Source: Verrucomicrobiia bacterium (GTDB taxonomy: Bacteria > Verrucomicrobiota > Verrucomicrobiia > Limisphaerales > UBA11358). Taken from it: a stretch of DNA of 64,000 bases. Positions 2,903 to 62,460 of this stretch are shown piece by piece. Every line of letters starts with the position of its first letter. Position 1 is the stretch's first letter. The notes beneath the pieces were generated by a model. It was not told the DNA's origin. It ran no database searches and saw only the letters and a program-made list of their open reading frames with translations. Both the position numbers and the translations under genes were made by a program. Location of the stretch: contig DASXED010000032.1 in NCBI GenBank assembly GCA_036490295.1, positions 2,060 to 66,059 of the forward strand, in the 5' to 3' direction.

Positions 2903-5581
2903 TCAAACAAGCTGCGGCTGGATTTTTTCAGGATCAACTCCGAGGTCTTTGATTGACTTCGCCACAACTTCACGTCCGATCAAACCTTTTTCCGCCAGCG
3001 CGTAGAGCGTGCCGATGACGGTGGACTCCGCGTCCACTTCAAAAAATCTCCGCAGCCGCGCCCGCGTGTCGCTGCGACCAAAGCCGTCCGTGCCGAGTGT
3101 GAACAATCCGCCCGGAACCCATGGCGCAATCTGGTCCGGCACGGTGCGGATGTTGTCGGAAACGGCGACGAACGCGCCCTGCTCTTTCGCCAATAAATTT
3201 TCGACGTAGGATTTTTTGGCCGGTTCTGTCGGATGCAGCATATTCCAGCGCTGGCAACGGATCGCGTCAGTCCGCAAAAGTTTATAGCTCGTCGCGCTCC
3301 AGACATCGGCGGAAATGTCGTAGCGTTCGGCCAGAATTTCCTGCGCCTTCAATGCAGACTGGATGATCGGCCCGCTGCCAAAAATATGCGCCTTGATTTT
3401 TTTGCCTTCCGCGCCAGGCTTGAATTTATACAAGCCTTTCAAAATTCCGTCTTCGACGCCCGCAGGCATCGGCGGCATGACATGATTTTCGTTGTAGAGC
3501 GAAAGGTAATAAAAAACGTCCTCGTTCTCGACATACATCCGGCGCAAACCGTCGGCGATGATCACGGCAAGTTCATAACCGAACGCCGGATCGTAAGGCA
3601 GGCAGGTCGGAATCGTGCCCGCGTGCAGCAAGCTGTGGCCGTCCTGATGTTGCAGGCCCTCGCCGTTGAGCGTCGTGCGGCCGGACGTTGCGCCGAGCAA
3701 AAAACCTTTCGCGCGGATGTCGCCCGCGAGCCAGAACAGATCACCGACGCGCTGCGGGCCGAACATCGAGTAGTAAATGTAAAATGGAATCGTCGGCACG
3801 CCGTGCGTCGCATAGCTCGTGCCGGAGGCGATGAACGACGCCATCGAACCGGCCTCGGTGATTCCTTCTTCAAGAATCTGCCCGTCCTTCGCCTCGTGAT
3901 AGAAGGACAGCGTGTTGCTGTCAACCGGTTCGTAAAGCTGGCCTTTCGACGAATAAATTCCGATCTCGCGGAACAATGTGTCCAGTCCAAATGTCCGCGC
4001 TTCGTCGGGAATGATCGGCACTAGGTTTTTGCTGACGCCCTTGTGCTGGAGCATGAGGCTCAACATCCGGCCAAAAGCCATGGTCGTCGAAACTTCCCGC
4101 GTTGAACCCCTGACAAGCTCGGCAAAGTGATCAAATTTTGGCACGTCAAGCGTGACGGGACTGACGTGGCGCGCGGGCAAAAATCCGCCAAGCGCCTTGC
4201 GCCGTTCGAGCAGGTATTTCATCTCTGCGCTGTCGGCGGGCGGGCGATAAAACGGCGTCTCCGCGATCACATCGTCGCTGACGGGAATCTCGAAGCGCTC
4301 GCGGAATTCGCGCAGCTCCTTTTCGTTCATCTTTTTTTGCTGATGCGAAATGTTCCGGCCTTCGCCCGCTTCGCCGAGGCCGTAGCCTTTCACGGTCTTC
4401 GCCAAAATCACCGTCGGCCGGCCTTTGTGTTCCACGGCCGATTTGTAAGCGGCATAAACTTTCAACGTGTCGTGGCCGCCGCGCAGCAGCTTGCGGATCT
4501 GCTCGTCCGTGAGGTGATTCACAATTTGAAGCAGCTCGGGATATTTGCCGAAAAAATGCTCGCGCGTGTAGCTGCCCGGCTCGACGCAATATTTTTGAAA
4601 ATCGCCGTCCACGCATTCTTCCATGCGCTTGAACAGCAGGCCGCTCTTGTCGCGCTTGAGCAGTTCGTCCCAGTCCGTTCCCCAAATCACCTTGATGACG
4701 TTCCAGCCCGCGCCGCGAAAAAGCCCTTCGAGTTCCTGGATGATTTTTCCATTGCCGCGAACCGGGCCGTCGAGCCGCTGCAAATTGCAGTTGATGACCC
4801 AGATCAGATTGTCGAGATTTTCGCGCGCGCCGAGCGATTCCGGCTCGTCGCATTCGCCGTCGCCGAGAAACGCCCAGACCTTCGGCTCGTCCGTCCAATT
4901 CACCAGGCCGCGCGATTTCAGATAACGGTTGAACCGCGCCTGATACAGCGACATGAGCGGGCCGAGACCCATCGAGACCGTGGGAAATTGCCAGAAATCC
5001 GGCATCAAATACGGATGCGGATAAGACGACAATCCGCCGCCATCAGCCAGTTCCTGCCGGAAATTTTGCAAATGCTTTTCGTCCAAACGGCCTTCGAGAA
5101 ACGCGCGCGCATAAATTCCCGGCGACGCGTGGCCTTGAAAATAAATCAAGTCGCCGGGAAAATTTTCCGTCGCGCCGCGAAAAAAATGATTGAACCCGAC
5201 CTCGTAAAGCGTCGCCGCAGATGCGTAGGTGGAAATGTGTCCGCCGACGTTCGTCGTCGAATTCGCCTTGACGACCATCGCCATCGCGTTCCAGCGCATG
5301 AGGCTTTTGATGCGGCGCTCCGTTTTCCAATCGCCCGGATATTCCGGCTGCTGCTCCGCCGGAATCGTGTTCGTGTAAGGAGTTGTCAACCCGGCCTGCG
5401 GGCGCGGCGCCGTGCGCAATTGATCCGCCAATTTTTCCAGCAGCTTCGCCGTGCGCTCCGGCCCCTGGCTTTGAAGGGAAAGTTCAAAAACTGATTGCAG
5501 CGATTCGCCCCACTTCTCGCCGTTGCCGTTGGAAACAGCGGCGGGGCGCGAACCGTAAATATCTTTAGTCTCGACGTTCAC
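2903..5581 (-). CDS. aceE: pyruvate dehydrogenase E1 component, homodimeric AceE type
   Basis: 892-aa ORF of the typical AceE length. A ThDP-binding region (GDGECDEPES...NCNLQRLDG) is visible. It lies upstream of the E2 and E3 genes. Confidence 0.93.
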   Translation of the reverse strand: MNVETKDIYGSRPAAVSNGNGEKWGESLQSVFELSLQSQGPERTAKLLEKLADQLRTAPRPQAGLTTPYTNTIPAEQQPEYPGDWKTERRIKSLMRWNAMAMVVKANSTTNVGGHISTYASAATLYEVGFNHFFRGATENFPGDLIYFQGHASPGIYARAFLEGRLDEKHLQNFRQELADGGGLSSYPHPYLMPDFWQFPTVSMGLGPLMSLYQARFNRYLKSRGLVNWTDEPKVWAFLGDGECDEPESLGARENLDNLIWVINCNLQRLDGPVRGNGKIIQELEGLFRGAGWNVIKVIWGTDWDELLKRDKSGLLFKRMEECVDGDFQKYCVEPGSYTREHFFGKYPELLQIVNHLTDEQIRKLLRGGHDTLKVYAAYKSAVEHKGRPTVILAKTVKGYGLGEAGEGRNISHQQKKMNEKELREFRERFEIPVSDDVIAETPFYRPPADSAEMKYLLERRKALGGFLPARHVSPVTLDVPKFDHFAELVRGSTREVSTTMAFGRMLSLMLQHKGVSKNLVPIIPDEARTFGLDTLFREIGIYSSKGQLYEPVDSNTLSFYHEAKDGQILEEGITEAGSMASFIASGTSYATHGVPTIPFYIYYSMFGPQRVGDLFWLAGDIRAKGFLLGATSGRTTLNGEGLQHQDGHSLLHAGTIPTCLPYDPAFGYELAVIIADGLRRMYVENEDVFYYLSLYNENHVMPPMPAGVEDGILKGLYKFKPGAEGKKIKAHIFGSGPIIQSALKAQEILAERYDISADVWSATSYKLLRTDAIRCQRWNMLHPTEPAKKSYVENLLAKEQGAFVAVSDNIRTVPDQIAPWVPGGLFTLGTDGFGRSDTRARLRRFFEVDAESTVIGTLYALAEKGLIGREVVAKSIKDLGVDPEKIQPQLV

Positions 5582-18396: not shown

Positions 18397-19362
18397 TCAA
18401 GCCAGAACCGCAATTTCTTTGCGCTCTTTGCGACTTTGCGTGAGTATTTTTCTTTTCAAAGCCAGATCAATCATTCGCTGGCACAATTCTTCGTAACTCA
18501 ATCCCGCCGCAGCCGCAGCTTTCGGCAATAAACTTGTTTCCGTCATTCCGGGCAACGTGTTCACTTCCAGCACGACTGGCTCGCCATTTTTGCGAACCAT
18601 CACGTCCACGCGCGCATAATCGCGTCCGCCAATCGCATGAAATGCGCCGAGCGCAGCGGCTTGAATTTTCTTTGTTGTCGCTGCATCAAACTCCGCCGGG
18701 CAAAAATATTCCGTGCAACCAGATGTATATTTATTTTTGTAATCGTAACTGCCAACTTTTGGCCGGACTTCGACAACCGGCAGCGCAATGCCGTCCAAAA
18801 TCCCCACCGTCGTCTCACGCCCGACGATTTTTTCCTCGACCAAAACTTCCGAATCAAATTTCAACGCTTCCGCCAGCGCATTTTGCCAGTCTTCCGCGCG
18901 CTCGACAAATTGCAGACCGACGCTCGAACCCTGCCGCACCGGTTTCACGACCAGCGGCAATCGCAAATCTTCCGGCAGCGGCGCTTTTTCCGAACTGACG
19001 ACCACAAATTTCGCCGTCGGCACGCCGGCCGCGATGCACTTTTGTTTCGTCAAAACCTTGTCGAACGCGATGCGGCTCGCTTCCGAATCGCAGCCCGTGT
19101 AAAGCACGCCGAGTTGCGCCAGTTGCCGCTGCACCGTGCCGTCCTCGCCGTAAGTTCCGTGCAACGGCGCGAGGCAGACGACCTCCGTGTCCGGCGGCAA
19201 AATCCAGTCCGGCGTTTTGGGATCCAGCTCGACCACCGTGTGACCGAGCGACCGCAACGCCTTCACCACGCCCGCGCCCGACCGCAACGACACTTCGCGC
19301 TCGGCGCTTGGGCCGCCGAGCATCACCACAATTTTTAATTTTTTATGCACGATGGAATTCAA
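18397..19362 (-). CDS. ddl: D-alanine--D-alanine ligase
   Basis: 321-aa ATP-grasp protein with GGPSAEREVSL, HGTYGEDGTVQ and EVNTLPGMT. Confidence 0.93.
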   Translation of the reverse strand: MNSIVHKKLKIVVMLGGPSAEREVSLRSGAGVVKALRSLGHTVVELDPKTPDWILPPDTEVVCLAPLHGTYGEDGTVQRQLAQLGVLYTGCDSEASRIAFDKVLTKQKCIAAGVPTAKFVVVSSEKAPLPEDLRLPLVVKPVRQGSSVGLQFVERAEDWQNALAEALKFDSEVLVEEKIVGRETTVGILDGIALPVVEVRPKVGSYDYKNKYTSGCTEYFCPAEFDAATTKKIQAAALGAFHAIGGRDYARVDVMVRKNGEPVVLEVNTLPGMTETSLLPKAAAAAGLSYEELCQRMIDLALKRKILTQSRKERKEIAVLA

Positions 19363-19364
19363 AA

Positions 19365-20312
19365 TTAAATAATCTCTGGATTAAATTTAAGTATTTCCTG
19401 CCAAATCTCTGGTAGCTCGTCTCTAATGTAACTTCCAATTAGAACTCTCCCGCCTGGATTTTCGGACAGCACAGTGCGACAAAGACGAATTTGTTTTAGT
19501 CTTTTTGCCAAATTAAGAAGCTGAATAGTCCATCTGCTAGCATCTTCTTGAATCATCTTCCGAAATTTCTCTGGATCATTTTCAAACTCTGACATCTTCC
19601 TCGTAGCTCTTGGTGAAAGATCAATATGTGCGGAGTTGAAAAGATATGAGCAACCTCGTAGGCGCAATTTAGTTTCCAATGGCGTGAACCAAGCGTTAGG
19701 CGGCGGTCTCCAACTGCGAAAATAGTTCACGAGACGAAATGAAAGTGGCTTTGAATCTATTACTTCGCCGATTGTTCGCTTCCACTCACGGTCTTCGTAA
19801 AATTCAGTATCGGATGGATTAACTGCAAGAGTTAAAACTTCGGCATTTTCTATATCACCAAAAAAAGGAATTGGACACCTCGACCTACATTCACCATATA
19901 GACTGTTAAATTCCTCATCAGTTTCCTCGACCGTATTGATTGTGTTATCTACCAATTCAATAAGTTGATTGCTTGGACTAAACTCCGCGAATACGGACGA
20001 ATTCAAACTTTGCCATTGGCTGTCATCGCACCATGTAATTACTCTTCGAGGAAAAACACTGGACGGATTGTCATCAATAATCACATCCGGTTTCCCAACA
20101 AATCCTGAAAAAAAACCAGCCAGACCATGTTCTACGGCTTTGGAACGAGCATAATCACCGCCAGCTCCAGACCAAAGATACAAATTTGAATCAGGATGTT
20201 CTGCATTCAATTTCAGCCGAATCTGCCGCAGAATTTCTTGAGCGCGCGGATCAACACCTTCATTGCTATTCAGCAATGTTCCGTCCACGTCTATGAAAAT
20301 ATTCATGCTCAT
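19365..20312 (-). CDS. orphan fusion protein: N-terminal HAD-like phosphatase domain plus an unknown domain of about 190 aa
   Basis: 315-aa ORF with a DVDGTL (DxDxT) motif at residues 8-13 and KPDVIIDD later. The C-terminal half has LTLAVNPS and HIDLSPRAT motifs. It is visibly AT-richer than its neighbours. Its ATG overlaps the stop of the murB 3' remnant. Confidence 0.6.
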   Translation of the reverse strand: MSMNIFIDVDGTLLNSNEGVDPRAQEILRQIRLKLNAEHPDSNLYLWSGAGGDYARSKAVEHGLAGFFSGFVGKPDVIIDDNPSSVFPRRVITWCDDSQWQSLNSSVFAEFSPSNQLIELVDNTINTVEETDEEFNSLYGECRSRCPIPFFGDIENAEVLTLAVNPSDTEFYEDREWKRTIGEVIDSKPLSFRLVNYFRSWRPPPNAWFTPLETKLRLRGCSYLFNSAHIDLSPRATRKMSEFENDPEKFRKMIQEDASRWTIQLLNLAKRLKQIRLCRTVLSENPGGRVLIGSYIRDELPEIWQEILKFNPEII

Positions 20313-20415
20313 TCTTCGCCGATAATTTCGACTTCCGTGTGCAATTCAATTCCGCGTTCAGCTTTCGCCTTTGCCTTCAAAATTGAAATCAATTCCAAAA
20401 CGTCGCGCGCCGTCG
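20313..20415 (-). repeat. direct-repeat copy A: diverged duplicate of the murB 3' coding end (remnant)
   Basis: This 103 nt aligns with 21141-21243 with about 8 mismatches. It still reads TARDVLELISILKAKAKAERGIELHTEVEIIGEE-stop. Confidence 0.85.
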
Positions 20416-20438
20416 TCATGTTCAAATTTCGGTTCATG

Positions 20439-20840
20439 TCACTTCACAAATTTTTCCAGCGAGACGGCAATTTTCGGAAACGCGCGCAAAACCTGTTTGT
20501 CCGCCGTCACCAACGGCACGCCCAAATCCTGCGCCAGCGCCACATATTCGCAGTCGTAAGCCGTGCAATCGGATGCCAGCACCAGCTTGATGATCCGCTC
20601 GGTCGGCACGGAATATTCATTCGCGCCCAAATCTTTCTGGACATTCAGATAGGCGGCGTTGGCCTCGGCCTCGGTCAATGTTTGTCTTCGTAAATATCCC
20701 GCCAACACATTCCGAAATTCCGCGCGCCACAAAATTGGCGACGCCCAAACTTTGTCGCGGTCTTTTACGGCTTCCGTTAATTCCGCAAAGTCGCTAGGCA
20801 GCCAGAAATAAACCAGCACGCTGTTGTCCACGACAATCAC
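20439..20840 (-). CDS. vapC: type II toxin VapC (PIN-domain ribonuclease)
   Basis: 133 aa with PIN acidic residues (VVDNS, TAYDCEY, VTADKQ). It overlaps the upstream antitoxin gene by 4 nt. Confidence 0.88.
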   Translation of the reverse strand: MIVVDNSVLVYFWLPSDFAELTEAVKDRDKVWASPILWRAEFRNVLAGYLRRQTLTEAEANAAYLNVQKDLGANEYSVPTERIIKLVLASDCTAYDCEYVALAQDLGVPLVTADKQVLRAFPKIAVSLEKFVK

Positions 20841-21076
20841 GCGCGACCTTCTTCCTTGAAACGTTTCAAATCCGCCGCCGTCACCTTGAACTTGAGCGAA
20901 TTGCGGAACTGGCGCGCCCGCTGAATGATTCCCTCGGCCTCGACCGGCACGCTGCGGACGCTGGATTCCAAAACAGCAATGGCTTCGCTGTTCAAACTCC
21001 GGCGGTGTTCTGCCGCGCGTTTTTTTAATTCACGGTGCGTTTCTTTCGGAATGCCTTTAAGAGTCATTGTTATCAT
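20837..21076 (-). CDS. vapB: type II antitoxin, Arc/FitA-like ribbon-helix-helix (VapB)
   Basis: 79 aa. MTLKGIPKETHRELKKRAAEHRRSLNSEAIAVLE is typical of the FitA/VapB RHH N-terminus. Confidence 0.8.
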   Translation of the reverse strand: MITMTLKGIPKETHRELKKRAAEHRRSLNSEAIAVLESSVRSVPVEAEGIIQRARQFRNSLKFKVTAADLKRFKEEGRA

Positions 21077-21082
21077 GACACA

Positions 21083-21110
21083 ACCATAACGAAACCATTT
21101 TGAATGTCAA
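21083..21110 (-). promoter_or_regulatory. candidate vapBC promoter (possibly a leaderless transcript)
   Basis: On the minus strand: TTGACA (21110-21105), a 16-nt spacer, then TATGGT (21088-21083). The -10 element ends 7 nt before the vapB ATG at 21076. Confidence 0.35.
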
Positions 21111-21133
21111 GGCGCAACCGTTTTGGTTGCGCT

Positions 21134-22087
21134 TTAATTGTCTTCGCCGACGATTTCGACTTCCGTGTGCAATTCGATTCCGCGTTCGGCTTTCGCCTTG
21201 GTCTTCAAGATTGAAATCAATTCCAAAATGTCGCGCGCCGTCGCCTTGCCGTCGTTCACGATGAAATTGCCATGTTCGGCGGAAACCACCGCGCCGCCCA
21301 CACGCGCGCCCTTCAATCCCAGTTCGTCCACCAGCCGGCCCGCCGGGATCGCGCCGGGATTTTTGAAGATGCAACCCGCGCTCGGCGCCGCCGGCTGCGA
21401 TCCCCAGCGCTTCTCGTTGAACGCCTTCATGCGCCGCTCGATCTCCGCGCGCGGCAAAGTCCGGCATCGGAAAACCGCGCCCAGCGCGATGTGATTCTTC
21501 AACGCCGCGCAACTGCGATAATCCACGGACATTTGTTTTGGTGACATTTCAGAAATGTTGCCGTCAAAATCCATCACGCGCACCGACTCGACGACATCGA
21601 ACGTCGCGCCGCCCATCGCTCCCGCGTTCATCCGCAACGCACCGCCGACGCTGCCGGGAATGCCTTCGAGAAATTCCACGCCGCTCAAATTGTTCCGCTT
21701 CGCCTCGACCGAGACATTCTTCAATTTCGCGCCCGCGCCGCAAAAAATTTGCTCTCCAACAATTTCAATCTTGCTGAAATGCGATTGCGACAAACAAATC
21801 ACCACACCGCGAAAACCACCGTCGCGCACGAGCAGATTCGAGCCGCGCCCGAGAATGAAAAATTTGATTCCGTTTTCACTGCAAAACTTCACGATGTTCG
21901 CCAAATCATCTTCGTTCGCCGGCTCGACATAAATATCCGCCGGCCCACCGACGCGCAACGTCGTGTGCTTTGCCATCGGCTCGTCGCGACGAACCATCGT
22001 CGCGCGCGAAACGCGCCCGGCAATTTCATCCGCGATATTTTTCTCAATTCGCATCGGATTTTTCAAAATGTCAGTCGTCAGCGTCAT
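21134..22087 (-). CDS. murB: UDP-N-acetylenolpyruvoylglucosamine reductase
   Basis: 317 aa with an FAD-binding domain (HTTLRVGGPADIYVEP, GRGSNLLV) and a C-terminal MurB domain. Confidence 0.93.
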   Translation of the reverse strand: MTLTTDILKNPMRIEKNIADEIAGRVSRATMVRRDEPMAKHTTLRVGGPADIYVEPANEDDLANIVKFCSENGIKFFILGRGSNLLVRDGGFRGVVICLSQSHFSKIEIVGEQIFCGAGAKLKNVSVEAKRNNLSGVEFLEGIPGSVGGALRMNAGAMGGATFDVVESVRVMDFDGNISEMSPKQMSVDYRSCAALKNHIALGAVFRCRTLPRAEIERRMKAFNEKRWGSQPAAPSAGCIFKNPGAIPAGRLVDELGLKGARVGGAVVSAEHGNFIVNDGKATARDILELISILKTKAKAERGIELHTEVEIVGEDN

Positions 22088-23307
22088 GCGGCGGAAAATT
22101 TCTGTCGTTCCGTCACGTCGGAGCGTGAACGGTTTCCACGTTGGAGTTCAGGCTTCAGCCTGTTCTTTTCCGGCAAGCTAAAGCTTGAACTCCAACATAC
22201 GGCCAAAATATTTTCCGCAATCTGTTCCGCTGCCTTTGGCGCGTGCCACTGCGCGAGCGCGGCTTGCATTTTCTCGCGTGCAGACGAATCTTCAATCAAT
22301 TGGCTCAAAATTGCCGCGACTTTTTCGGGCGTGGAATTTTTTTGTTGGAGCAATTTTGCCGCGCCGTTTTTTTCAAAAGCGCGCGCGTTGAAGAATTGAT
22401 GGTTGTCCGCCGCCGCCGGATACGGCACGAGCAGCGCCGGCAGCGGCATGGCCGCGATTTCCGCCAGCGACGATGCGCCGGCGCGGCTGACGGAAACCGT
22501 CGCCGCGCCAAGCGCCAAATCCATTTCGGCAAGAAATGGTTTTACAACGGCCTTGATTCTGGCAGCGACATAAGCTGATTTTACTTTTTCAAAATCGTTC
22601 GGGCCGGTGAGATGAAGCCATTGCCAGCTTTTTCCAGCGAGCAATGGCAGCGCGGACAAAATCATTTCATTAAGGCCGCTCGCGCCCTGACTTCCGCCCA
22701 TGACCAGAATCGTCGGCAAATTCGGATCGAGTCCGATAGTGGCGCGGGCATCCTGCCCGCGATTCGCAGGCGAGACGCCTGCGCCACTAAAAAATTGCGG
22801 GCGAACCGGCGTTCCCGTCACAGAAACTTTGCGCGCTTTCAATCTCGCTGCGGCCTCGGGAAACCCGACGAACGCCTCGCCGACGAAGCGCGAAAGAAAA
22901 CGGTTGGCCTTGCCGGGAATAGTGTTGGATTCGTGCAAAAAAGTTTTCGCGCCGATTTTCCGCGCGGCGAGAATCGGCGGCGCAGAGGTAAATCCACCCA
23001 TTGCAAGAACAGCATCGGGTTTGCACTGTTTGAAAATTTTCCGCGACGCGCAAAATGAATTCCAAAAGCTTTTAGCGAAGGAAAAATAATTACGGTTTTG
23101 CAATCCAACCGCCGGAAGCGTGAAGATTTCAAAGCCTTGCGCGGATTTGACGGCCTGTTGATCCACGTCTTTTGGCGAGATGAGCAGCGCAACTTCGCAG
23201 CCGCGCTTTTTTAATTCTCCGGCGACGGCGAGTCCCGGAAAAAGATGCCCGCCCGTTCCGCCGCAGGCGATGGCGACGAAGGGTTTTTTAATTTCAGAAG
23301 CGGTCAT
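22084..23307 (-). CDS. murG: UDP-N-acetylglucosamine--LPS/lipid I N-acetylglucosamine transferase MurG
   Basis: 407 aa with GGTGGHLFPGLAVA and GGSQGA. It carries two translated palindromic elements. There is a 4-nt ATGA overlap with murB. Confidence 0.92.
   Translation of the reverse strand: MTASEIKKPFVAIACGGTGGHLFPGLAVAGELKKRGCEVALLISPKDVDQQAVKSAQGFEIFTLPAVGLQNRNYFSFAKSFWNSFCASRKIFKQCKPDAVLAMGGFTSAPPILAARKIGAKTFLHESNTIPGKANRFLSRFVGEAFVGFPEAAARLKARKVSVTGTPVRPQFFSGAGVSPANRGQDARATIGLDPNLPTILVMGGSQGASGLNEMILSALPLLAGKSWQWLHLTGPNDFEKVKSAYVAARIKAVVKPFLAEMDLALGAATVSVSRAGASSLAEIAAMPLPALLVPYPAAADNHQFFNARAFEKNGAAKLLQQKNSTPEKVAAILSQLIEDSSAREKMQAALAQWHAPKAAEQIAENILAVCWSSSFSLPEKNRLKPELQRGNRSRSDVTERQKFSAA
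22140..22196. repeat. paired-hairpin palindromic element (GTTGGAG subtype) in the murG 3' tail
   Basis: GTTGGAGTTCAGGCTTCAGCCTGTTC is followed by GGCAAGCTAAAGCTTGAACTCCAAC. It has inverted termini and each arm can form a hairpin. Confidence 0.7.
22738..22788. repeat. paired-hairpin palindromic element (GTGGCGC subtype), intragenic in murG
   Basis: AGTGGCGCGGGCATCCTGCCCGCG, ATTC, then GCAGGCGAGACGCCTGCGCCACT. It is 51 nt long and translated as SGAGVSPANRGQDARAT. Confidence 0.8.
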
Positions 23308-24476
23308 GTGACTCTCGCGGCGAAGGGATTATCGGCGGCGTCAATTTCCGGTTTGGAATTTTTCGCGCGGACAGTTTTTTCCCGCGCGGGCGCGCGGCGC
23401 GCGACGCTCAACAAAATTCCGATGCCGATCAGCATCGCGAGCAGACTCGAGCCGCCGGAACTGATGAACGGCAGCGCGAGTCCCTTGTTCGGCAGGACGC
23501 TGGTGACGACGCCGATGTTGATCGCGGCTTGGAGCGAAATCAAAAACGTGACGCCCGTCGCGAGCAGGCAGCCGAAGTTGTCGCGCGCGCGGAGCGCAAT
23601 GCGGATTCCGCAAATCGCGATGAGCAGAAATGCGAGGACGACGAAGAGCGTCGCGATCAATCCCAATTCCTCGCCGATGTTGGCGAAAATAAAATCACTT
23701 TGGATTTCAGGGATGTAGCCGAGTTTCTGCAATCCGTTGCCGAGGCCGAGGCCGGTCACGCCGCCCGCGCCGAGCGCGATCATGCCCTGTTGAGCCTGGA
23801 GCGCCGCGCCGTTCAAATGTTGCTGCGGATGCAACCACGCGGCGATGCGGTTCATGCGCATCGGGCTGTGCAAAATTGAAACCGCCAGCGCCGCCGCGCC
23901 GCAAAGCGCGGGAATCAAAAGATGTTTCAATTGGACGCCCGCGACGAGAAGCATCATGTCGCTGACGACAGCCAGAAGAATTGTCGTGCCGCGATCAGGC
24001 TCGACAAAAATTATGCCGAGCGCGGCGGCAATTATAATTCCGGGAAACAAAACTCCACGCTTAAAGGTTTCCATTTTCCGCTGTGAGCGGTCGCAATACC
24101 GCGCAAGCATGATGATGAGCGCGATCTTGACGAGTTCGGACGGTTGAAATGTCGCGCCGGGCAATTTGATCCAGCGGTGTGCGCCGTTGAGTTTCATTCC
24201 AAAATGCGGAACGAAAACCGAAGTTGCCAGCGCGAGCGCGCAAATGAAAATCGGCAGCGCCAGTTTTTTGAGAATTGCGTAGTCGAGAACCGCCGTCACC
24301 GCGCACGCGACGAATCCGAGCGCGCTCCAGACGAGTTGCATCTGGAGCAGATGCGCGCCGACTTCGGCGTGCGTGCGGGCGTTGACGAGCGCGAGGCTCG
24401 CGCTGTAAATCATCACCAGCCCGAGCGCGAGCAGCGCGGCGACGCAAAATGACAGTGTTGTGACGGCGACTTTCAT
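23304..24476 (-). CDS. ftsW: peptidoglycan glycosyltransferase FtsW (SEDS family)
   Basis: 390-aa polytopic FtsW/RodA/SpoVE-family protein in dcw context. Confidence 0.9.
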   Translation of the reverse strand: MKVAVTTLSFCVAALLALGLVMIYSASLALVNARTHAEVGAHLLQMQLVWSALGFVACAVTAVLDYAILKKLALPIFICALALATSVFVPHFGMKLNGAHRWIKLPGATFQPSELVKIALIIMLARYCDRSQRKMETFKRGVLFPGIIIAAALGIIFVEPDRGTTILLAVVSDMMLLVAGVQLKHLLIPALCGAAALAVSILHSPMRMNRIAAWLHPQQHLNGAALQAQQGMIALGAGGVTGLGLGNGLQKLGYIPEIQSDFIFANIGEELGLIATLFVVLAFLLIAICGIRIALRARDNFGCLLATGVTFLISLQAAINIGVVTSVLPNKGLALPFISSGGSSLLAMLIGIGILLSVARRAPAREKTVRAKNSKPEIDAADNPFAARVT

Positions 24477-27000: not shown

Positions 27001-28470
27001 TTATTTTTCAGTTTTTAATGTTTCCGCAATCCGTTCCAGCCGCGACGCCCGCGACGCCTTCAACAAAACCACGTCGCCTGTTTTCAAAAACTTTCTGATC
27101 ACCGTCACCGCCGCCTCGACATTTTCAAATTCAATCACCCGGTTTAATCCGCCATCACGCGCCGCTTTTGCCGTTACCGCCGCCATTTTTCCGACCGCGA
27201 ACAATTGCCCGATTTTCAATTCCGCCGCGCGTCTACCGACTTCCGCATGCGCCGACTCGCTGTGCGCGCCGAGTTCTGCCATGTCGCCGAGAACCGCCAC
27301 GCGCCGCCCTTGCAACGGCAGATCGCACAAAGTTTCCAGCGCGGCAATCGTCGAATCCGCGTTCGCGTTGTAGGCGTCGTCCAAAATGCGCACGCCGTTC
27401 GCTTCCCAAAATTGCAGCCGCATTTTCGGCGGCTTGCACTCGGCCAGACCGCTCTGAATTTCAGCGCGACTCAAATCAAGTTCCTCGCCGACTGCAATCG
27501 CAAACAAAGCATTCGTCACCTGATGGCGACCGAGCAAATTAATCCGATACTCGCCGCAAAAATCTTGTAGTGGCACGGGCGTCTCGCCCGTGAGTTCATT
27601 CAGACTGCCGACGTTTTCAGAAACACACGGGCGAGACGCCCGTGCCACTACCCGGAACGTCACACCATTTTTATCCAATCGAATTTTGTCCGCGCGCCAG
27701 TCGTTTTTTTCGCCGAGTCCAACGCGGACAATTTTCGCTTTCGTCCGCTGAACAATTTTTTCTGTCCATTCGTTGTCGCCGTTCACAAAAAGTTTTCCGT
27801 CCGACGGCAAAAGTTCCGCAAGCCAGCCTTCTTCCTGCACGACTCCGACAACGTCGCCAAAAAATTCCAGATGCTCACGCCCGACATTCGTCAGCACGCC
27901 GAACTTTGGCTGGATCATTTTCACCAACGGCGCGAGTTCACCCGGATGATTCGTTCCCGCTTCCAACACAGCGACTTGATGCGATTTTTCCAGTCGCAAC
28001 AAAGTCAGCGGCACGCCGATATCATTATTAAAACTCGCCTCGCTTGCCAGCGTCGAAAATTTCTGGCGCAAAACTGACGCGAGCAATTCTTTCACCGTCG
28101 TCTTGCCGTTCGAGCCGCCGACGCAAACAATTGGCAAATCAAATTGCGTTCGATAAGCCGCCGCCAATTTTCCCAGCGCGATTCTTGGGTCATCAACAAT
28201 CAATAGTGGCACGGGCATCTTGCCCGTGAGTTTTTCATCAACGCACGGGCGGGACGCCCGTGCCACTACGATTGCCGCAACATTTTTCGCCGAGACTTCA
28301 TTCAAGAAATCGTGGCCGTCGAATTTTTCGCCGCGAATGGCAAAGAACAAATCACCTGCTTTTGCCTGACGTGAATCGGTGCAAACATTTTTCACCAAAA
28401 CTTCAGCCGCGCCGCGACGGATTTCAGCGGCGCAGGCTTCGGCGACAAATTTCAAAGAGCGTTCTTCCAC
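27001..28470 (-). CDS. murF: UDP-N-acetylmuramoyl-tripeptide--D-alanyl-D-alanine ligase
   Basis: 489 aa with TDSRQAKAGDLFFAIRGEKFDGHDF and GSNGKTT. It contains two translated palindromic elements. Confidence 0.92.
   Translation of the reverse strand: MEERSLKFVAEACAAEIRRGAAEVLVKNVCTDSRQAKAGDLFFAIRGEKFDGHDFLNEVSAKNVAAIVVARASRPCVDEKLTGKMPVPLLIVDDPRIALGKLAAAYRTQFDLPIVCVGGSNGKTTVKELLASVLRQKFSTLASEASFNNDIGVPLTLLRLEKSHQVAVLEAGTNHPGELAPLVKMIQPKFGVLTNVGREHLEFFGDVVGVVQEEGWLAELLPSDGKLFVNGDNEWTEKIVQRTKAKIVRVGLGEKNDWRADKIRLDKNGVTFRVVARASRPCVSENVGSLNELTGETPVPLQDFCGEYRINLLGRHQVTNALFAIAVGEELDLSRAEIQSGLAECKPPKMRLQFWEANGVRILDDAYNANADSTIAALETLCDLPLQGRRVAVLGDMAELGAHSESAHAEVGRRAAELKIGQLFAVGKMAAVTAKAARDGGLNRVIEFENVEAAVTVIRKFLKTGDVVLLKASRASRLERIAETLKTEK
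27569..27649. repeat. paired-hairpin palindromic element (GTGGCAC subtype), intragenic in murF
   Basis: GTGGCACGGGCGTCTCGCCCGTG (27570-27592) and its exact reverse complement (27626-27648). The AGTGG-to-CCACT span is 81 nt. It is translated on the minus strand as VARASRPCVSENVGSLNELTGETPVPL. Confidence 0.85.
28205..28267. repeat. paired-hairpin palindromic element (GTGGCAC subtype), intragenic in murF
   Basis: GTGGCACGGGCATCTTGCCCGTG (28206-28228) and CACGGGCGGGACGCCCGTGCCAC (28244-28266). It is 63 nt long and translated as VARASRPCVDEKLTGKMPVPL. Confidence 0.85.
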
Positions 28471-30839: not shown

Positions 30840-30848
30840 TTTTTATTT

Positions 30849-30936
30849 AGTGGCACGGGCGTCTCGCCCGTGAGTTTCAAATTTTCTGTGTGCATCGGCT
30901 TCACTCGCAACGCACGGGCGGGACGCCCGTGCCACT
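30849..30936. repeat. paired-hairpin palindromic element (GTGGCAC subtype), intergenic ftsL-rsmH
   Basis: GTGGCACGGGCGTCTCGCCCGTG (30850-30872) and CACGGGCGGGACGCCCGTGCCAC (30913-30935). The right terminus overlaps the rsmH stop codon (cta at 30935-30937). Confidence 0.85.
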
Positions 30937-31876
30937 ATGCACGTTCAATTTTCTCCAAAATTCTCAACTGCGCGCTGCGGCTGCGCGGATTTTCCTGCAA
31001 TTCTTTTTCTCCGGGCAAAATTGCCTTACGATTCACCCATTTCATTTCCGGCGCGCGCGGCTGTCGCAATTCCGGCACGTCCACTTCGCCGCTGAACGTG
31101 TAATCTCGCGTTTTTTCGCGGCCAAAATCTTTCACGATGCGATCTTCGAGCGAATGAAACGTGATGACCGCCAATCGTCCGCCTGGTTTCAAAATTTTCA
31201 CCGCTGCTTCCAGCCCGCGTTTCAAAGAACCGATTTCGTCGTTCACCGCGATCCGCAGCGCTTGAAAAACTTTTGTCGCCGGATGCGATTTTTTTCCGTG
31301 GCGCGGCGCAAGCCGCTCGATCAATTCCGCCAACTGCTTCGTCGTCTCAAATTTTCGCTGCGCGCGGTCGTGGACAATTGCCTTTGCAAATCTTCGCGAC
31401 TCGCGCTCACCGCCAAATTCCCAAAAAATCTTCGCCAGTTCCTCGGCACTCAAATCGTTCACCAAATCCGCCGCCATCAGTTTTTGCCGGTCGTCCATCC
31501 GCATATCGAGCGGGCCATCGTTCTGAAAACTGAACCCGCGTTCCGCCGAATCCAGTTGCGGCGAACTTACGCCCAAATCCAAAATCACGCCGTCACAACT
31601 TTTTTCCGCAATCCAATCCGCCATTTCCGAAAAATTTCCGCGCCGGATTTCAAAACGTCCGGCGAATTTTTCGGCGAGCCGTTTCTGCGCGGCTTCAACC
31701 GCGACGCCATCGCGATCGCACCCAGACAGCCATCCAGTCGGCGAACTCGCCGCCAGAATGCTCGCGGCGTGACCAGCTCCACCGAGCGTGCCGTCGGCGT
31801 AGCGGCCGCCCGGCCTCGGCTTCAGCGCGTCCAACACCTCCGCCGCCATCACTGGTTTGTGAATGAATTCTGGCAC
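30935..31876 (-). CDS. rsmH: 16S rRNA (cytosine1402-N4)-methyltransferase
   Basis: 313 aa with HKPVM, DGTLGGAGHA, DLGVSSPQLD and FHSLEDRIVK. Confidence 0.94.
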   Translation of the reverse strand: MPEFIHKPVMAAEVLDALKPRPGGRYADGTLGGAGHAASILAASSPTGWLSGCDRDGVAVEAAQKRLAEKFAGRFEIRRGNFSEMADWIAEKSCDGVILDLGVSSPQLDSAERGFSFQNDGPLDMRMDDRQKLMAADLVNDLSAEELAKIFWEFGGERESRRFAKAIVHDRAQRKFETTKQLAELIERLAPRHGKKSHPATKVFQALRIAVNDEIGSLKRGLEAAVKILKPGGRLAVITFHSLEDRIVKDFGREKTRDYTFSGEVDVPELRQPRAPEMKWVNRKAILPGEKELQENPRSRSAQLRILEKIERA

Positions 31877-46079: not shown

Positions 46080-46111
46080 ATATTATTTCAAGAAATTTCG
46101 CAAGTTTTCAT

Positions 46112-46189
46112 AATTCCAAAGTTTCACAAGGCACATCCTGCGCGGCGAGCTGGAGCCGGATACGCGTCGCGCTGATGCGGTGATTCTTC
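46112..46189 (-). repeat. direct-repeat copy: diverged duplicate of the MBL-hydrolase gene 3' coding end (remnant)
   Basis: It aligns with 46723-46800 with about 6-8 mismatches. It still reads HRISATRIRLQLAAQDVPCETLEL-stop, against HHIGATHVRLQLAAQDVPCETLEL-stop in the intact gene. Confidence 0.85.
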
Positions 46190-46192
46190 ATT

Positions 46193-46447
46193 TCACCGAT
46201 AAACTTCCCGGCGATGTCGCACGCGATGCACGCGCACCACGCGGATGACATCCGCTATTTCGTAAATCACGCGATAGTCGCCGACGCGAATGCGCCAGTC
46301 GTTTTCTGTTCCTGCAAGTTTCCGGCAGCCAGATGGCCGTGGATTCTGCGCGAGCTTTTGAATTGCAGTGATGATGCGGTCGTGAAGGTCGTGCGCGAGC
46401 CGTCCCAAATCCTTTTCGGCGGAGCGTTCGAGCAGGATTTTATACAC
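46193..46447 (-). CDS. relE: type II toxin, RelE/ParE family
   Basis: 84 aa. WRIRVGDYRVIYEIADVIRVVRVHRVRHRREVY is a classic RelE/ParE C-terminus. It overlaps the antitoxin gene by 8 nt. Confidence 0.86.
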   Translation of the reverse strand: MYKILLERSAEKDLGRLAHDLHDRIITAIQKLAQNPRPSGCRKLAGTENDWRIRVGDYRVIYEIADVIRVVRVHRVRHRREVYR

Positions 46448-46643
46448 GTTCGGATTTTTGCTCCGTCAAATAATCCGCCAGCGGGCGGTAACGCAGCGGT
46501 TTCCGGCGCGCTTGCTTGAGCCACGCAACGTCATCGGCGTCTTCCGCGCGCTCGATCAATTCCTCGTAATCCTTGATCGGCAAAATCACAGACACGGGCT
46601 TGCCTTTGCGGGTCACGATTTCTGGTTCGGCTAAAATTGACAT
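46440..46643 (-). CDS. phd: type II antitoxin, Phd/YefM-like
   Basis: 67 aa. The N-terminus IVTRKGKPVSVILPIKDYEELIE is typical of Phd/YefM-type antitoxins. Confidence 0.78.
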   Translation of the reverse strand: MSILAEPEIVTRKGKPVSVILPIKDYEELIERAEDADDVAWLKQARRKPLRYRPLADYLTEQKSERV

Positions 46644-46718
46644 GATGTTAAATTACTTTTCAATTTCCATCGTTTCGCCGCCGTTGCCAAGTTATTTTTG
46701 CGGCCAAAACAATTTCAT

Positions 46719-47555
46719 TCACAATTCCAAAGTTTCACAAGGCACATCCTGCGCGGCAAGCTGGAGCCGGACGTGCGTCGCGCCGATGTGATGGAGCTGC
46801 TCGGCCATGACGTGTTGCGCGAGTTCGGGCTTGTTGCATTCGCGGCTCAAGTGGGCGAGGTAAAGATATTTCAATTCCGCAGACATGATTTGCGCGGCGG
46901 CCTCGGCGGCGGCCACGTTCGAGAGATGGCCGTGGCGTCCGAGGATGCGCTGCTTGAGCGGCCACGCGCGGCGCGGACAATCCTGCAGCATCTTCACGTC
47001 GTGGTTGGATTCGAGGACGAGGACGTTCGCGGCGCGGATGCGATCCAACACGAGCTTGGTGGTGTGGCCAAGGTCGGTGGCAAAACCAATGTTGCCGCGC
47101 GCGGTGCGCAAAAGAAATCCGACGGGGTCTTGCGCGTCGTGCGGGATGGAAAAGGTTTCGATGAGAATGTCGGCGATTTCAAAACTGCCGCCGGTGGTGA
47201 ACAACTGCCAGTCGATTTTGGATTTGAACGTGTCGGCGGCTTCGAGGGCGAGATTGGTTTTCTTGCTCCATTTGTTTTTGAAGGTCCAGATGGTGGCGTC
47301 CTGTGTGTCGCGGTTGCAATAGACAGGGATGTGAAATTTGTCGGCGATGCCGAGCAGCCCGGCGATGTGGTCGCTGTGTTCGTGCGTAATTAAAATTGCC
47401 GTCAGATTTTCCGGCGTCCGTCCGATTGAAGCGAGGCGCGTGCGGATTTGGCGCGGGGAAAATCCCGCGTCAATCAGAACGCGGCAGTTTTCGGTTTCGA
47501 CATAGGCGCAATTGCCGGACGAACCGCTGCCGAGGATGGTGAATTTGACGGACAC
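46719..47555 (-). CDS. MBL-fold metallo-hydrolase (YycJ-like)
   Basis: 278 aa with ILGSGSSGN and the HEHSDH metal motif. Confidence 0.88.
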   Translation of the reverse strand: MSVKFTILGSGSSGNCAYVETENCRVLIDAGFSPRQIRTRLASIGRTPENLTAILITHEHSDHIAGLLGIADKFHIPVYCNRDTQDATIWTFKNKWSKKTNLALEAADTFKSKIDWQLFTTGGSFEIADILIETFSIPHDAQDPVGFLLRTARGNIGFATDLGHTTKLVLDRIRAANVLVLESNHDVKMLQDCPRRAWPLKQRILGRHGHLSNVAAAEAAAQIMSAELKYLYLAHLSRECNKPELAQHVMAEQLHHIGATHVRLQLAAQDVPCETLEL

Positions 47556-61954: not shown

Positions 61955-62155
61955 ATGGGACGCATCCGTCGCGGCGGATATATTTTGTTTTGGTGGATTG
62001 GCGACCATGCGCCACGGCACATTCATGTGCGAACGGACAAAGGCAGGAAGCTTGGTCGTATTGATTTGGACACGATGCAAGGATTAGAAAATTGGACACC
62101 GCCCAAAGATTTGGTTAATATAATCGTGGAGTTAAAAGAAAAAGGCCGTTTATGA
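61955..62155 (+). CDS. DUF4160-domain protein
   Basis: 66 aa. The WIGDHAPRHIHV motif matches the DH.PPHFH core of DUF4160. The region is AT-rich. Confidence 0.72.
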   Translation: MGRIRRGGYILFWWIGDHAPRHIHVRTDKGRKLGRIDLDTMQGLENWTPPKDLVNIIVELKEKGRL

Positions 62156-62460
62156 CGCAAACACAGACATTGGCGCGGATGAAAAAACCTTTTGGCACGG
62201 CCAAAATGGTTGACCTCACGGCTGTGCGCTATCTGGCGTGGGAAGATGCCTTTGAAGTGGATTTCGAGGATGGCCTGACCTTTCTCGAACCGCATTCGAC
62301 GATTCGCAAGGCGAACAAAATTTCCGCAAAAGCCGAAGTTGAAAAAGTTGAATTGGAAGATTGGTGCCAGTCCGGTTTCTTCGTCCATTACAACACCGGC
62401 GAAGTGGCGGAAGTTTCGTGGGCGTTCATCCGCGAATTGCCGCCGCGCAAGCAAAAATGA
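62152..62460 (+). CDS. DUF2442-like protein
   Basis: 102 aa with a 4-nt ATGA overlap with the DUF4160 gene. The segment AFEVDFEDGLTF fits the DUF2442 core. DUF4160 and DUF2442 genes are a known pairing. Confidence 0.55.
   Translation: MTQTQTLARMKKPFGTAKMVDLTAVRYLAWEDAFEVDFEDGLTFLEPHSTIRKANKISAKAEVEKVELEDWCQSGFFVHYNTGEVAEVSWAFIRELPPRKQK

Follow-up and report, generated by a model that had tools for sequence, protein, structure and literature searches.

A duplicated murB end around a toxin-antitoxin pair

How does a toxin-antitoxin (TA) pair come to lie within an operon of cell-wall genes, between two copies of the end of one of them? The question is raised by a 64-kb stretch of DNA (64,000 nucleotides of contig DASXED010000032.1, assembly GCA_036490295.1; hereafter, the window) from a soil bacterium placed in the Verrucomicrobiota, order Limisphaerales, in which a vapBC pair sits between murB and ddl in the division and cell wall (dcw) cluster. 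A copy of the murB 3' end at 20313-20420 repeats, in direct orientation and without gaps, the end of the live gene at 21141-21248 (108 nt, 91% identity in a repeat search of the window); only four direct-repeat pairs passed the same filter across the entire 64 kb. Over 103 nt of the same repeat, blastn gave 92.2% identity, that is, 8 mismatches, and chance likeness of the copies was rejected by both searches. We consider it on balance probable that the duplicate is the scar of one illegitimate join between two haplotypes of the murB-ddl slot, brought about by recombination among related lineages, a view that draws on about 90 related loci. How chromosomal TA cassettes move and persist without mobility genes is, to our knowledge, poorly understood.

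The locus comprises the following features, given in the direction of transcription; L numbers denote loci of related genomes.

21134-22087, minus strand: murB, the live gene, encoding UDP-N-acetylenolpyruvoylglucosamine reductase (open reading frame, ORF; Pfam FAD_binding_4 and MurB_C)
21141-21248, minus strand: R1, repeat copy at the 3' end of the live murB (repeat search, blastn)
21083-21135, minus strand: spacer s1, with a stem-loop and a sigma70-like promoter
20837-21076, minus strand: vapB, antitoxin, FitA-like ribbon-helix-helix protein (Pfam PF22513, E = 5e-11)
20439-20840, minus strand: vapC, toxin, PIN domain (Pfam PF01850, E = 1.3e-8)
20415-20437, minus strand: ddl', a fragment of the ddl 5' start (ATGAACCGAAATTTGAACAT..; unique match to the ddl start of a relative)
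20309-20437, minus strand: bridging ORF of 42 codons, 7 from ddl' fused to 35 from the displaced murB end (murB')
20313-20420, minus strand: R2, the displaced copy of the murB 3' end (repeat search), with tail and stop of the type found in HAD-bearing or empty haplotypes
19365-20312, minus strand: HAD-like gene, putative cargo (low GC; 96% nucleotide identity to the L005 copy)
18397-19362, minus strand: ddl, D-Ala-D-Ala ligase (5' half in a low-divergence tract)

All genes of the dcw cluster here lie on the minus strand, and the murB product is 65-89% identical at the amino acid level to its counterparts in 80 Limisphaerales loci. A stem-loop (21109-21135) stands directly 3' of the murB stop, and a candidate sigma70-like promoter (TTGACA-16-TATGGT, 21110-21083), a consensus match with a putative function, lies upstream of vapB. 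The antitoxin gene comes first and overlaps vapC by 4 nt, and alignment of VapC to the PIN protein PAE0151 (PDB 2fe1) shows that residues D5, E41, D96 and D114 are kept; the acidic PIN residues, together with the small, overlapping, DNA-binding antitoxin encoded upstream, would place the pair in the VapBC class of type II systems. The interval between the copies (20421-21140) holds only vapB, vapC, the sigma70-like promoter and the stem-loop; no recombinase was found in it, and an Rfam search gave no match above threshold. An earlier, sequence-only reading of this DNA had described the 103-nt duplication with about 8 mismatches, the absence of an integrase and of anything but vapB, vapC and a putative promoter between the copies, the end peptides of both copies, the overlap of the remnant's TGA with the downstream HAD ATG and the position inside the dcw cluster. 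On each of these points, it agrees with the blastn alignment, the gene content of the interval, and the ORF translations and layout obtained here.

That reading overlooked the nature of the 21-23 nt that separate the vapC stop from the murB remnant, which are ATGAACCGAAATTTGAACAT, the start of ddl. This fragment, ddl', begins 1 nt past the vapC stop and overlaps the junction with R2. The ddl 23-mer of L032, with at most three mismatches allowed, matches the window once, at 20415-20437 on the minus strand (expected, 0), and its position is that of the real ddl start site in the vapBC-ddl haplotypes of relatives. Given that a ddl start precedes the murB remnant, the ORF running through the remnant is a ddl'-murB' chimera, which starts 1 nt past the vapC stop and ends in a TGA overlapping the ATG of the HAD-like gene. 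The junction links ddl codon ~7 and murB codon about -35, which share 2-4 nt of sequence there (CA or ACGG); the join is thus illegitimate, with a microhomology of only a few bases.

Two haplotypes of the murB-ddl slot

The murB-ddl interval was compared across 80 species-level Limisphaerales loci, a comparison which the sequence-only reading had suggested as a means of finding empty sites and which did reveal them. In about 52 of the 80 loci the slot is empty, and the murB stop overlaps the ddl start or lies directly against it. A vapBC pair occupies the slot in about 21 species (44-96% amino acid identity), and in most of these carriers the vapC stop overlaps the ddl start (GTGA), with no second murB end. 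Seven further loci (L003, L006, L036, L043, L050, L057 and L062) retain only vapB remnants between murB and ddl, which look like stages of cassette loss. The HAD-like gene is found without vapBC in L005 and L009, where the murB TGA overlaps its ATG, and together with vapBC in L004 and L007. All close VapC homologues for which the context was looked up are encoded between murB and ddl. Since most vapBC carriers lack the duplication and the close homologues looked up share this slot, vapBC is a long-standing resident of the slot rather than a roaming cassette, and the duplication is not the usual signature of its insertion.

The two copies of the murB end differ in type. Positions 21134-21140, adjoining R1 (the last 7 nt of murB with the stop), are of the vapBC-haplotype type, and the R1 tail (GAAGACAATTAA), the type that accompanies vapBC, is identical in L165. 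The R2 tail (GAAGAATGAGC) is of the type that accompanies the HAD-like gene or an empty slot. Furthermore, R2 is collinear with murB-HAD of L005, and the entire R2-HAD-ddl segment of the window aligns contiguously with murB-HAD-ddl of that locus; L009 behaves likewise, including the ATGA stop/start overlap. With tails that are haplotype-specific and an R2-HAD-ddl segment collinear with L005, the window reads as two pieces spliced together, the left one from a murB-vapBC-ddl haplotype and the right one from a haplotype without vapBC.

The ddl'/R2 junction is not confined to the window: in full or eroded form, it was seen in at least six other lineages. L002 has it in front of a lipoprotein-like gene, and it is found in L165 (a 129-kb contig), where the right part of R2 has been replaced and ddl follows. 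In-frame, internally deleted versions of the junction occur in L007 (9 codons, then the HAD-like gene), L027 (11 codons, then ddl) and L166/L167 (12 codons with the same deletion as in L027, then the lipoprotein-like gene). The R2 copies of the window, L002 and L165 are 2-4 mismatches apart and cluster together, and the changes that separate the window R2 from that of L002 are all synonymous in murB. Hence, the junction arose once and subsequently spread and eroded. For the placement of R1 and R2, the mismatch tables yielded no information beyond the tails and the clustering of R2. There was no sign of gene conversion or concerted evolution between R1 and R2, the copies within a genome being no closer than those between genomes.

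In the window and the six related haplotypes (7 of 7), the bridging ORF is open and has the same geometry, with its start 1 nt past the vapC stop and its own stop overlapping the start of the next gene, whichever that is. This pattern would fit selection for translational coupling, although the seven haplotypes share ancestry.

Recombination around the slot

Beyond murB and ddl, the dcw cluster of the window includes the following genes.

23304-24476, minus strand: ftsW (ORF, Pfam)
22084-23307, minus strand: murG (ORF, Pfam)
Rest of the dcw cluster here, minus strand: ftsQ and ftsA (ORF, Pfam)

Divergence at 4-fold degenerate sites between the window and L002, L165, L004, L005 and L009 amounts to 0.3-0.5 in ftsW, murG, the C-terminal half of ddl and ftsQ, compared to 0.10-0.17 in the C-terminal half of murB and 0.03-0.12 in the N-terminal half of ddl. 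The zone of low divergence covers 18830-19362 (ddl) and 21250-21730 (murB), and extends to several species at once. Because synonymous divergence in these slot-side halves is 3-10-fold lower than in the neighbouring dcw genes, the zone flanking the cargo slot has evidently been homogenised by recombination, with the slot and its flanks apparently exchanged between species recently. For the same reason, namely the low neutral divergence of the whole region, the low divergence of R2 is not evidence of constraint, and purifying selection on R2 cannot be claimed from it.

The contents of the slot tell a similar story. The HAD-like gene has a GC content of 0.41-0.44 against 0.52-0.62 in its surroundings and is 96% identical in nucleotide sequence to the L005 copy, a likeness that the far more diverged backbones do not share. 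It has the look of a mobile cargo gene of the murB-ddl slot. Its product shows an N-terminal HAD motif at a sub-threshold level only, and comparison with PDB and NCBIfam returned no informative match. A single tract from R2 to the middle of ddl shared with L005 only was considered and withdrawn: the 5' half of ddl is 92-97% identical to that of all close relatives, and only the HAD-like gene is specifically L005-like. The vapBC alleles are themselves mosaic (20439-21076 compared with L001, L007, L010 and L021), with conserved ends and swapped cores: the 5' end of vapB and the last ~130 nt of vapC are 90-97% conserved at the nucleotide level, whereas the core, consisting of the vapB C-terminus and the vapC N-terminus, is only ~50% identical at the amino acid level between mosaic alleles. 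This suggests allelic replacement of the region that would determine toxin-antitoxin specificity. Taken together, the mosaic alleles, the 96% identical HAD-like gene and the low 4-fold divergence of the flanks indirectly indicate that the host recombines with its relatives.

Recurrence at the MBL-fold gene and thiC

The sequence-only reading had also reported that the same architecture recurs near 46112-46800, and this is indeed the case: a second direct repeat (46107-46182 and 46718-46793; 76 nt, 89% identity, or about 85 nt with a 3-nt indel) brackets a Phd-ParE pair behind an MBL-fold gene. Comparable sites were found in relatives, including behind thiC in Verrucomicrobia-type metagenome-assembled genomes.

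46718-46793, minus strand: R1', the 3' end of the MBL-fold gene (46719-47555; repeat search, Pfam)
46193-46643, minus strand: Phd-type antitoxin (46440-46643) and ParE toxin (46193-46447) (Pfam)
46107-46192, minus strand: R2', the displaced 3' end of the MBL-fold gene (repeat)
thiC sites, L176/L177 (2645-3397), L182-L190 and L194/L195 (1616-2417): thiC, Phd-ParE and a further copy of the thiC 3' end, in that order

R2' reads as a 27-codon ORF (46108-46191) which starts 1 nt after the parE stop. Four cases of duplication are known for the MBL-fold gene, namely, the window, L088, L100 and L086, with repeats of 58 nt (L100), ~80-85 nt (window and L088) and ~129 nt (L086). L088 has Phd-ParE and the R2 junction as in the window; its parE (5111-5449) is split by a frameshift and the antitoxin is intact, so that a decaying TA pair still carries R2. 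L100 harbours another pair, composed of an antitoxin and a YafQ-like toxin. The 2.4-kb cargo of L086 (3358-5730) may hold other addiction or defence modules, its genes encoding a GNAT acetyltransferase, a 328-aa protein and an AbiEii-like nucleotidyltransferase. R2 and the downstream DNA are collinear with empty haplotypes of other species in L088 (compare L132 and L154) and in L086 (compare L112); in L100, the match to the empty haplotype L083 begins only ~75 nt downstream of R2.

Homologues of the window ParE (76-93% amino acid identity) are encoded behind GATase, clpB, thiC, S8 peptidase and MFS transporter genes. In three thiC lineages, a copy of the thiC 3' end of about 175, 140, 95 or 45 nt follows the toxin gene. 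Four or five sites of this family show no duplication. In L176, the thiC R2 forms an intact 44-codon ORF, and R1 and R2 are 96% identical in the conserved part and about 75% identical in the variable tail, with the reading frame intact. The copies diverge in the manner of orthologues, which points to alleles of two lineages rather than to a copy made in place.

Across murB, the MBL-fold gene and thiC, the repeats range from 58 to about 175 nt, with the shortest thiC copy at 45 nt. On the right the repeat ends at the stop codon (-7 to +25 nt); on the left its limit varies. R2 follows the last cargo gene by 0-32 nt in most cases and by about 55 nt, occupied by a low-complexity spacer, in L182/L183. 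The cargo is always a TA pair or something similar. Repeats in L046 proved to be unrelated.

Origin of the duplication

Under the account that we favour, homology-facilitated illegitimate recombination (HFIR) resulting in 3'-end displacement, the left part of the locus (murB-R1-promoter-vapB-vapC and the first ~20 nt of ddl) would derive from a haplotype with ddl directly after vapC, and the right part (the last ~105 nt of murB, the HAD-like gene and ddl) from a vapBC-less haplotype. The illegitimate join would be non-homologous, with 2-4 nt of microhomology, and at its other end the exchange would have been an ordinary homologous one, located within the murB body or ddl. The transfer may have gone either way: the TA pair and R1 could have come in, or R2 and the HAD-like gene could have come in beside a resident TA pair. 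The collinearity of R2 and the DNA that follows with a cargo-less alternative haplotype would qualify the locus as an HFIR scar. If R1 and R2 later recombined, or if a TA-free haplotype took the place of the locus, vapBC would be deleted, an outcome that post-segregational killing might counter-select, and the chimeric ORF would hand ribosomes from vapC to the next gene via the stop/start overlaps, which could explain its openness. The association with TA and TA-like genes is plausibly a matter of survivorship: repeats of ~100 nt around neutral DNA would collapse, whereas loss of an addiction module would be counter-selected.

Several observations weigh against this account. The repeat is too short and too conserved for R1 or R2 to be placed phylogenetically, and the murB identity profiles, uneven in all comparisons, show no unique donor and no clean donor tract. 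The clean vapBC-ddl haplotypes could be derived from R2-bearing ones through a deletion between ddl' and ddl, in which case they would not be the parents. Addiction and translational coupling enter the account as inferences only. Finally, HFIR within one site cannot bring a cassette to a new gene, yet the Phd-ParE family is found behind at least six different genes, with a 3'-end duplication at two of those sites; therefore, some duplications may arise at first insertion.

The insertion of a TA cassette facilitated by homology had been one of two origins put forward from the sequence alone. The homology-facilitated origin, the lack of a recombinase and the recurrence of the architecture are retained here, with the illegitimate junction added, as is the notion that the copies are alleles of different origin, given that the R1 tail is of the vapBC type and the R2 tail of the HAD/empty type. 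By contrast, the duplication does not hold up as a general signature of vapBC insertion, considering that in most of the about 21 carriers among the 80 species vapC abuts ddl without a murB remnant. Nor need the extra murB end have arrived with the TA pair: the remnant is collinear with the vapBC-less L005 and could equally have arrived with the HAD-like gene beside a resident TA pair. A broader version, which we regard as possible yet doubtful, would treat addiction modules in these bacteria as integrase-free, homology-guided cassettes. Because loss of the TA pair or its replacement by TA-free DNA would kill the cell, each recombination event at a TA slot would only add DNA, leaving a displaced 3' end that then erodes.

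Several other routes could lead to the same arrangement. A Campbell-type event, in which the segment from the start of R to ddl codon ~7 was circularised by joining ddl' to R and then integrated by a single crossover in R into an empty or HAD-type slot, would leave a cassette that stays excisable by recombination between R1 and R2. The direct orientation of R1 and R2 and the ddl'-to-R join, the expected circle junction, are accommodated by this scheme, as is the occurrence of one cassette and junction before three different downstream contents, as if a circle had entered different recipients; in addition, species resemble one another more closely in R2 and in the vapC 3' end than in R1. However, neither a circle nor an empty/filled pair in one species was observed, and the contexts are explained just as well by a homologous swap of the downstream cargo in which R2/vapBC and ddl serve as arms, a kind of exchange that does take place, as the low synonymous divergence of the flanks shows. 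Moreover, the circle needs the same illegitimate join, so the scheme is a variant of the favoured account rather than an alternative to it, and we deem it unlikely. A duplication generated in situ at insertion, through template switching resembling microhomology-mediated break-induced replication or through repair of a staggered break near the stop codon, with the clean vapBC-ddl arrangement as later erosion, would explain why three unrelated target genes show the pattern, one Phd-ParE family showing it twice, and why the right edge of the repeat always falls at the stop codon (-7 to +25 nt). The apparent erosion series (~175, ~140, ~95 and ~45 nt at thiC; 104, 64, ~25 and 6 nt at murB) and the clean haplotypes that a ddl'-ddl deletion would yield are also compatible with it. 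We nevertheless find it quite improbable. The differences between R1 and R2 are those of alleles from separate lineages and not those expected if one copy were decaying beside its original; a simple target duplication would not put the ddl fragment on the side of the cassette where it lies at murB; conserved cassette ends were not seen in the comparison of sites; and four or five sites of the Phd-ParE family lack a duplication altogether.

The second origin proposed from the sequence alone, a decayed integrative element, appears very unlikely. In this scenario, a phage, an integrative and conjugative element (ICE) or an integrative mobilizable element would have entered at the murB 3' end, R1 and R2 being attL and attR, and everything but the TA pair would have been deleted. 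Such elements often target gene 3' ends and bring a surrogate end, TA pairs are common on them, and L086 does carry a larger, 2.4-kb cargo between its repeats. Yet no integrase or other element gene was detected in more than 10 haplotypes at the three sites, the left edges differ with each cargo, leaving no fixed att core, and a fragment of ddl lies at the junction; furthermore, vapBC is widespread in the slot without repeats, and the cargo is always co-oriented and, in most cases, packed 0-32 nt from R2. The lack of a recombinase and of a fixed core, together with boundaries that differ from event to event, thus argues against a site-specific element and equally against a transposon: no haplotype has a transposase or terminal repeats, no inverted repeat brackets the cassette, and both the cassette ends and the lengths of the duplication vary between sites. 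An integron cassette fits no better, given that R2 follows the toxin stop by 0-24 nt, leaving no room for attC, that no inverted-repeat site is present and that the neighbours are dcw genes. An assembly chimera, in which a metagenome assembler joined two strain haplotypes via their shared murB end, might be suspected, since the genome is evidently of metagenome type and R is shared by two naturally occurring haplotypes, but is hardly credible and was rejected: the ddl'-to-R junction is found in neither parental haplotype and so must be in the reads, and it recurs, diverged by substitutions and in-frame indels, in the independent assemblies L165 (129-kb contig), L002, L027 and L166/L167.

Comparison with known systems

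The closest parallel to the favoured HFIR account is the 3'-end displacement in arrays of rhs, contact-dependent inhibition (CDI) and type VI secretion system (T6SS) effector-immunity genes, which has been attributed to HFIR (Kirchberger et al., 2017; PMC5361080). In both settings, homology in the upstream gene would anchor the incoming module, the former 3' end is moved downstream and left as an orphan, a direct repeat of the conserved part of the gene surrounds the module, the genes that are kept are lethal to lose (immunity there, the antitoxin here), and no recombinase is involved; in both, too, the mechanism has been inferred. The differences lie in the displaced ends and the cargo. In the rhs, CDI and T6SS arrays, the ends are distinct toxin tips with their own immunity genes, and arrays accumulate; here, the displaced end is a near-identical end of a housekeeping gene and brings nothing else with it, a type II TA pair makes up the cargo, and the murB orphan is fused to a ddl fragment as a putative bridging ORF in an essential operon. 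Displacement of the rhs/CDI type was reportedly described by Jackson and colleagues in 2009, as cited by Kirchberger and colleagues.

HFIR in naturally transformable bacteria (de Vries and Wackernagel, 2002; Prudhomme et al., 2002; Meier and Wackernagel, 2003; as cited in PMC5361080 and PMC2884548) similarly combines one homologous junction with one junction of few-base microhomology, adding foreign DNA beside the anchor. The products described here, unlike those of the laboratory, have persisted across species. Laboratory HFIR events usually delete recipient DNA rather than duplicate it. The attL and attR sites of ICESt1/ICESt3-type elements and of cis-mobilizable elements (CIMEs) provide another parallel, in that direct repeats of a gene 3' end bracket foreign DNA and remnants may lack an integrase. 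Their repeats have a fixed core defined by the recombinase. The present ones change in length from event to event, no recombinase accompanies them, and the junction contains a piece of the downstream gene. With respect to the cargo, both the VapBC and the Phd-ParE pairs resemble type II TA systems in domain content, antitoxin-first order and gene overlap, as well as in the conserved acidic residues of PIN. What sets the present VapBC apart is its position between murB and ddl in the dcw operon, where it would be translationally linked to ddl in many species. A full-text literature search found no paper on a TA pair in the dcw cluster or the murB-ddl position, and none on TA cassettes bracketed by duplicated gene ends.

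The scar is therefore of a known general kind in a new setting, with TA cargo, housekeeping genes as targets and a bridging ORF in the dcw operon. Its junctions can be read base by base, revealing two parents, one illegitimate join, shrinking remnants that form an apparent erosion series and homogenised flanks, with an anatomy shared by three housekeeping genes. If the link to addiction holds, the displacement logic of polymorphic toxins would extend to ordinary TA pairs, and the signature could be searched for genome-wide. Should the broader cassette version be true, 3'-end duplications would constitute a general and datable footprint of TA invasion or retention, and displaced ends within operons would serve as co-opted bridging ORFs, through which translation of essential genes downstream is maintained. 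As VapBC is embedded in the essential murB-ddl part of the dcw operon in many Limisphaerales, a coupling between cell-wall precursor synthesis and TA expression is also possible.

Other features of the window

Pfam analysis of 10 candidate small ORFs for further TA pairs in the window yielded only one, a pair of overlapping small genes at 61955-62460 on the plus strand encoding a DUF4160 protein (66 aa) and a 102-aa partner, for which no flanking direct repeat was detected. Pairs of DUF4160 proteins and partners are often listed as putative TA-like systems.

Palindromic repeats resembling repetitive extragenic palindromic (REP) elements (TAGTGGCACGGGCGTCTCGCCCGTG...) are present at 27568-27651, 28204-28269 and 30848-30938. 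A degenerate REP-like copy (22737-22790) apparently lies in-frame in murG, where identity to relatives drops to ~50%. Similar REP-like elements flank the phd-parE pair in L180/L181; accordingly, the repeat that flanks phd-parE in L179-L181, initially a candidate target duplication, consists of copies of a multi-copy palindromic REP-like element.

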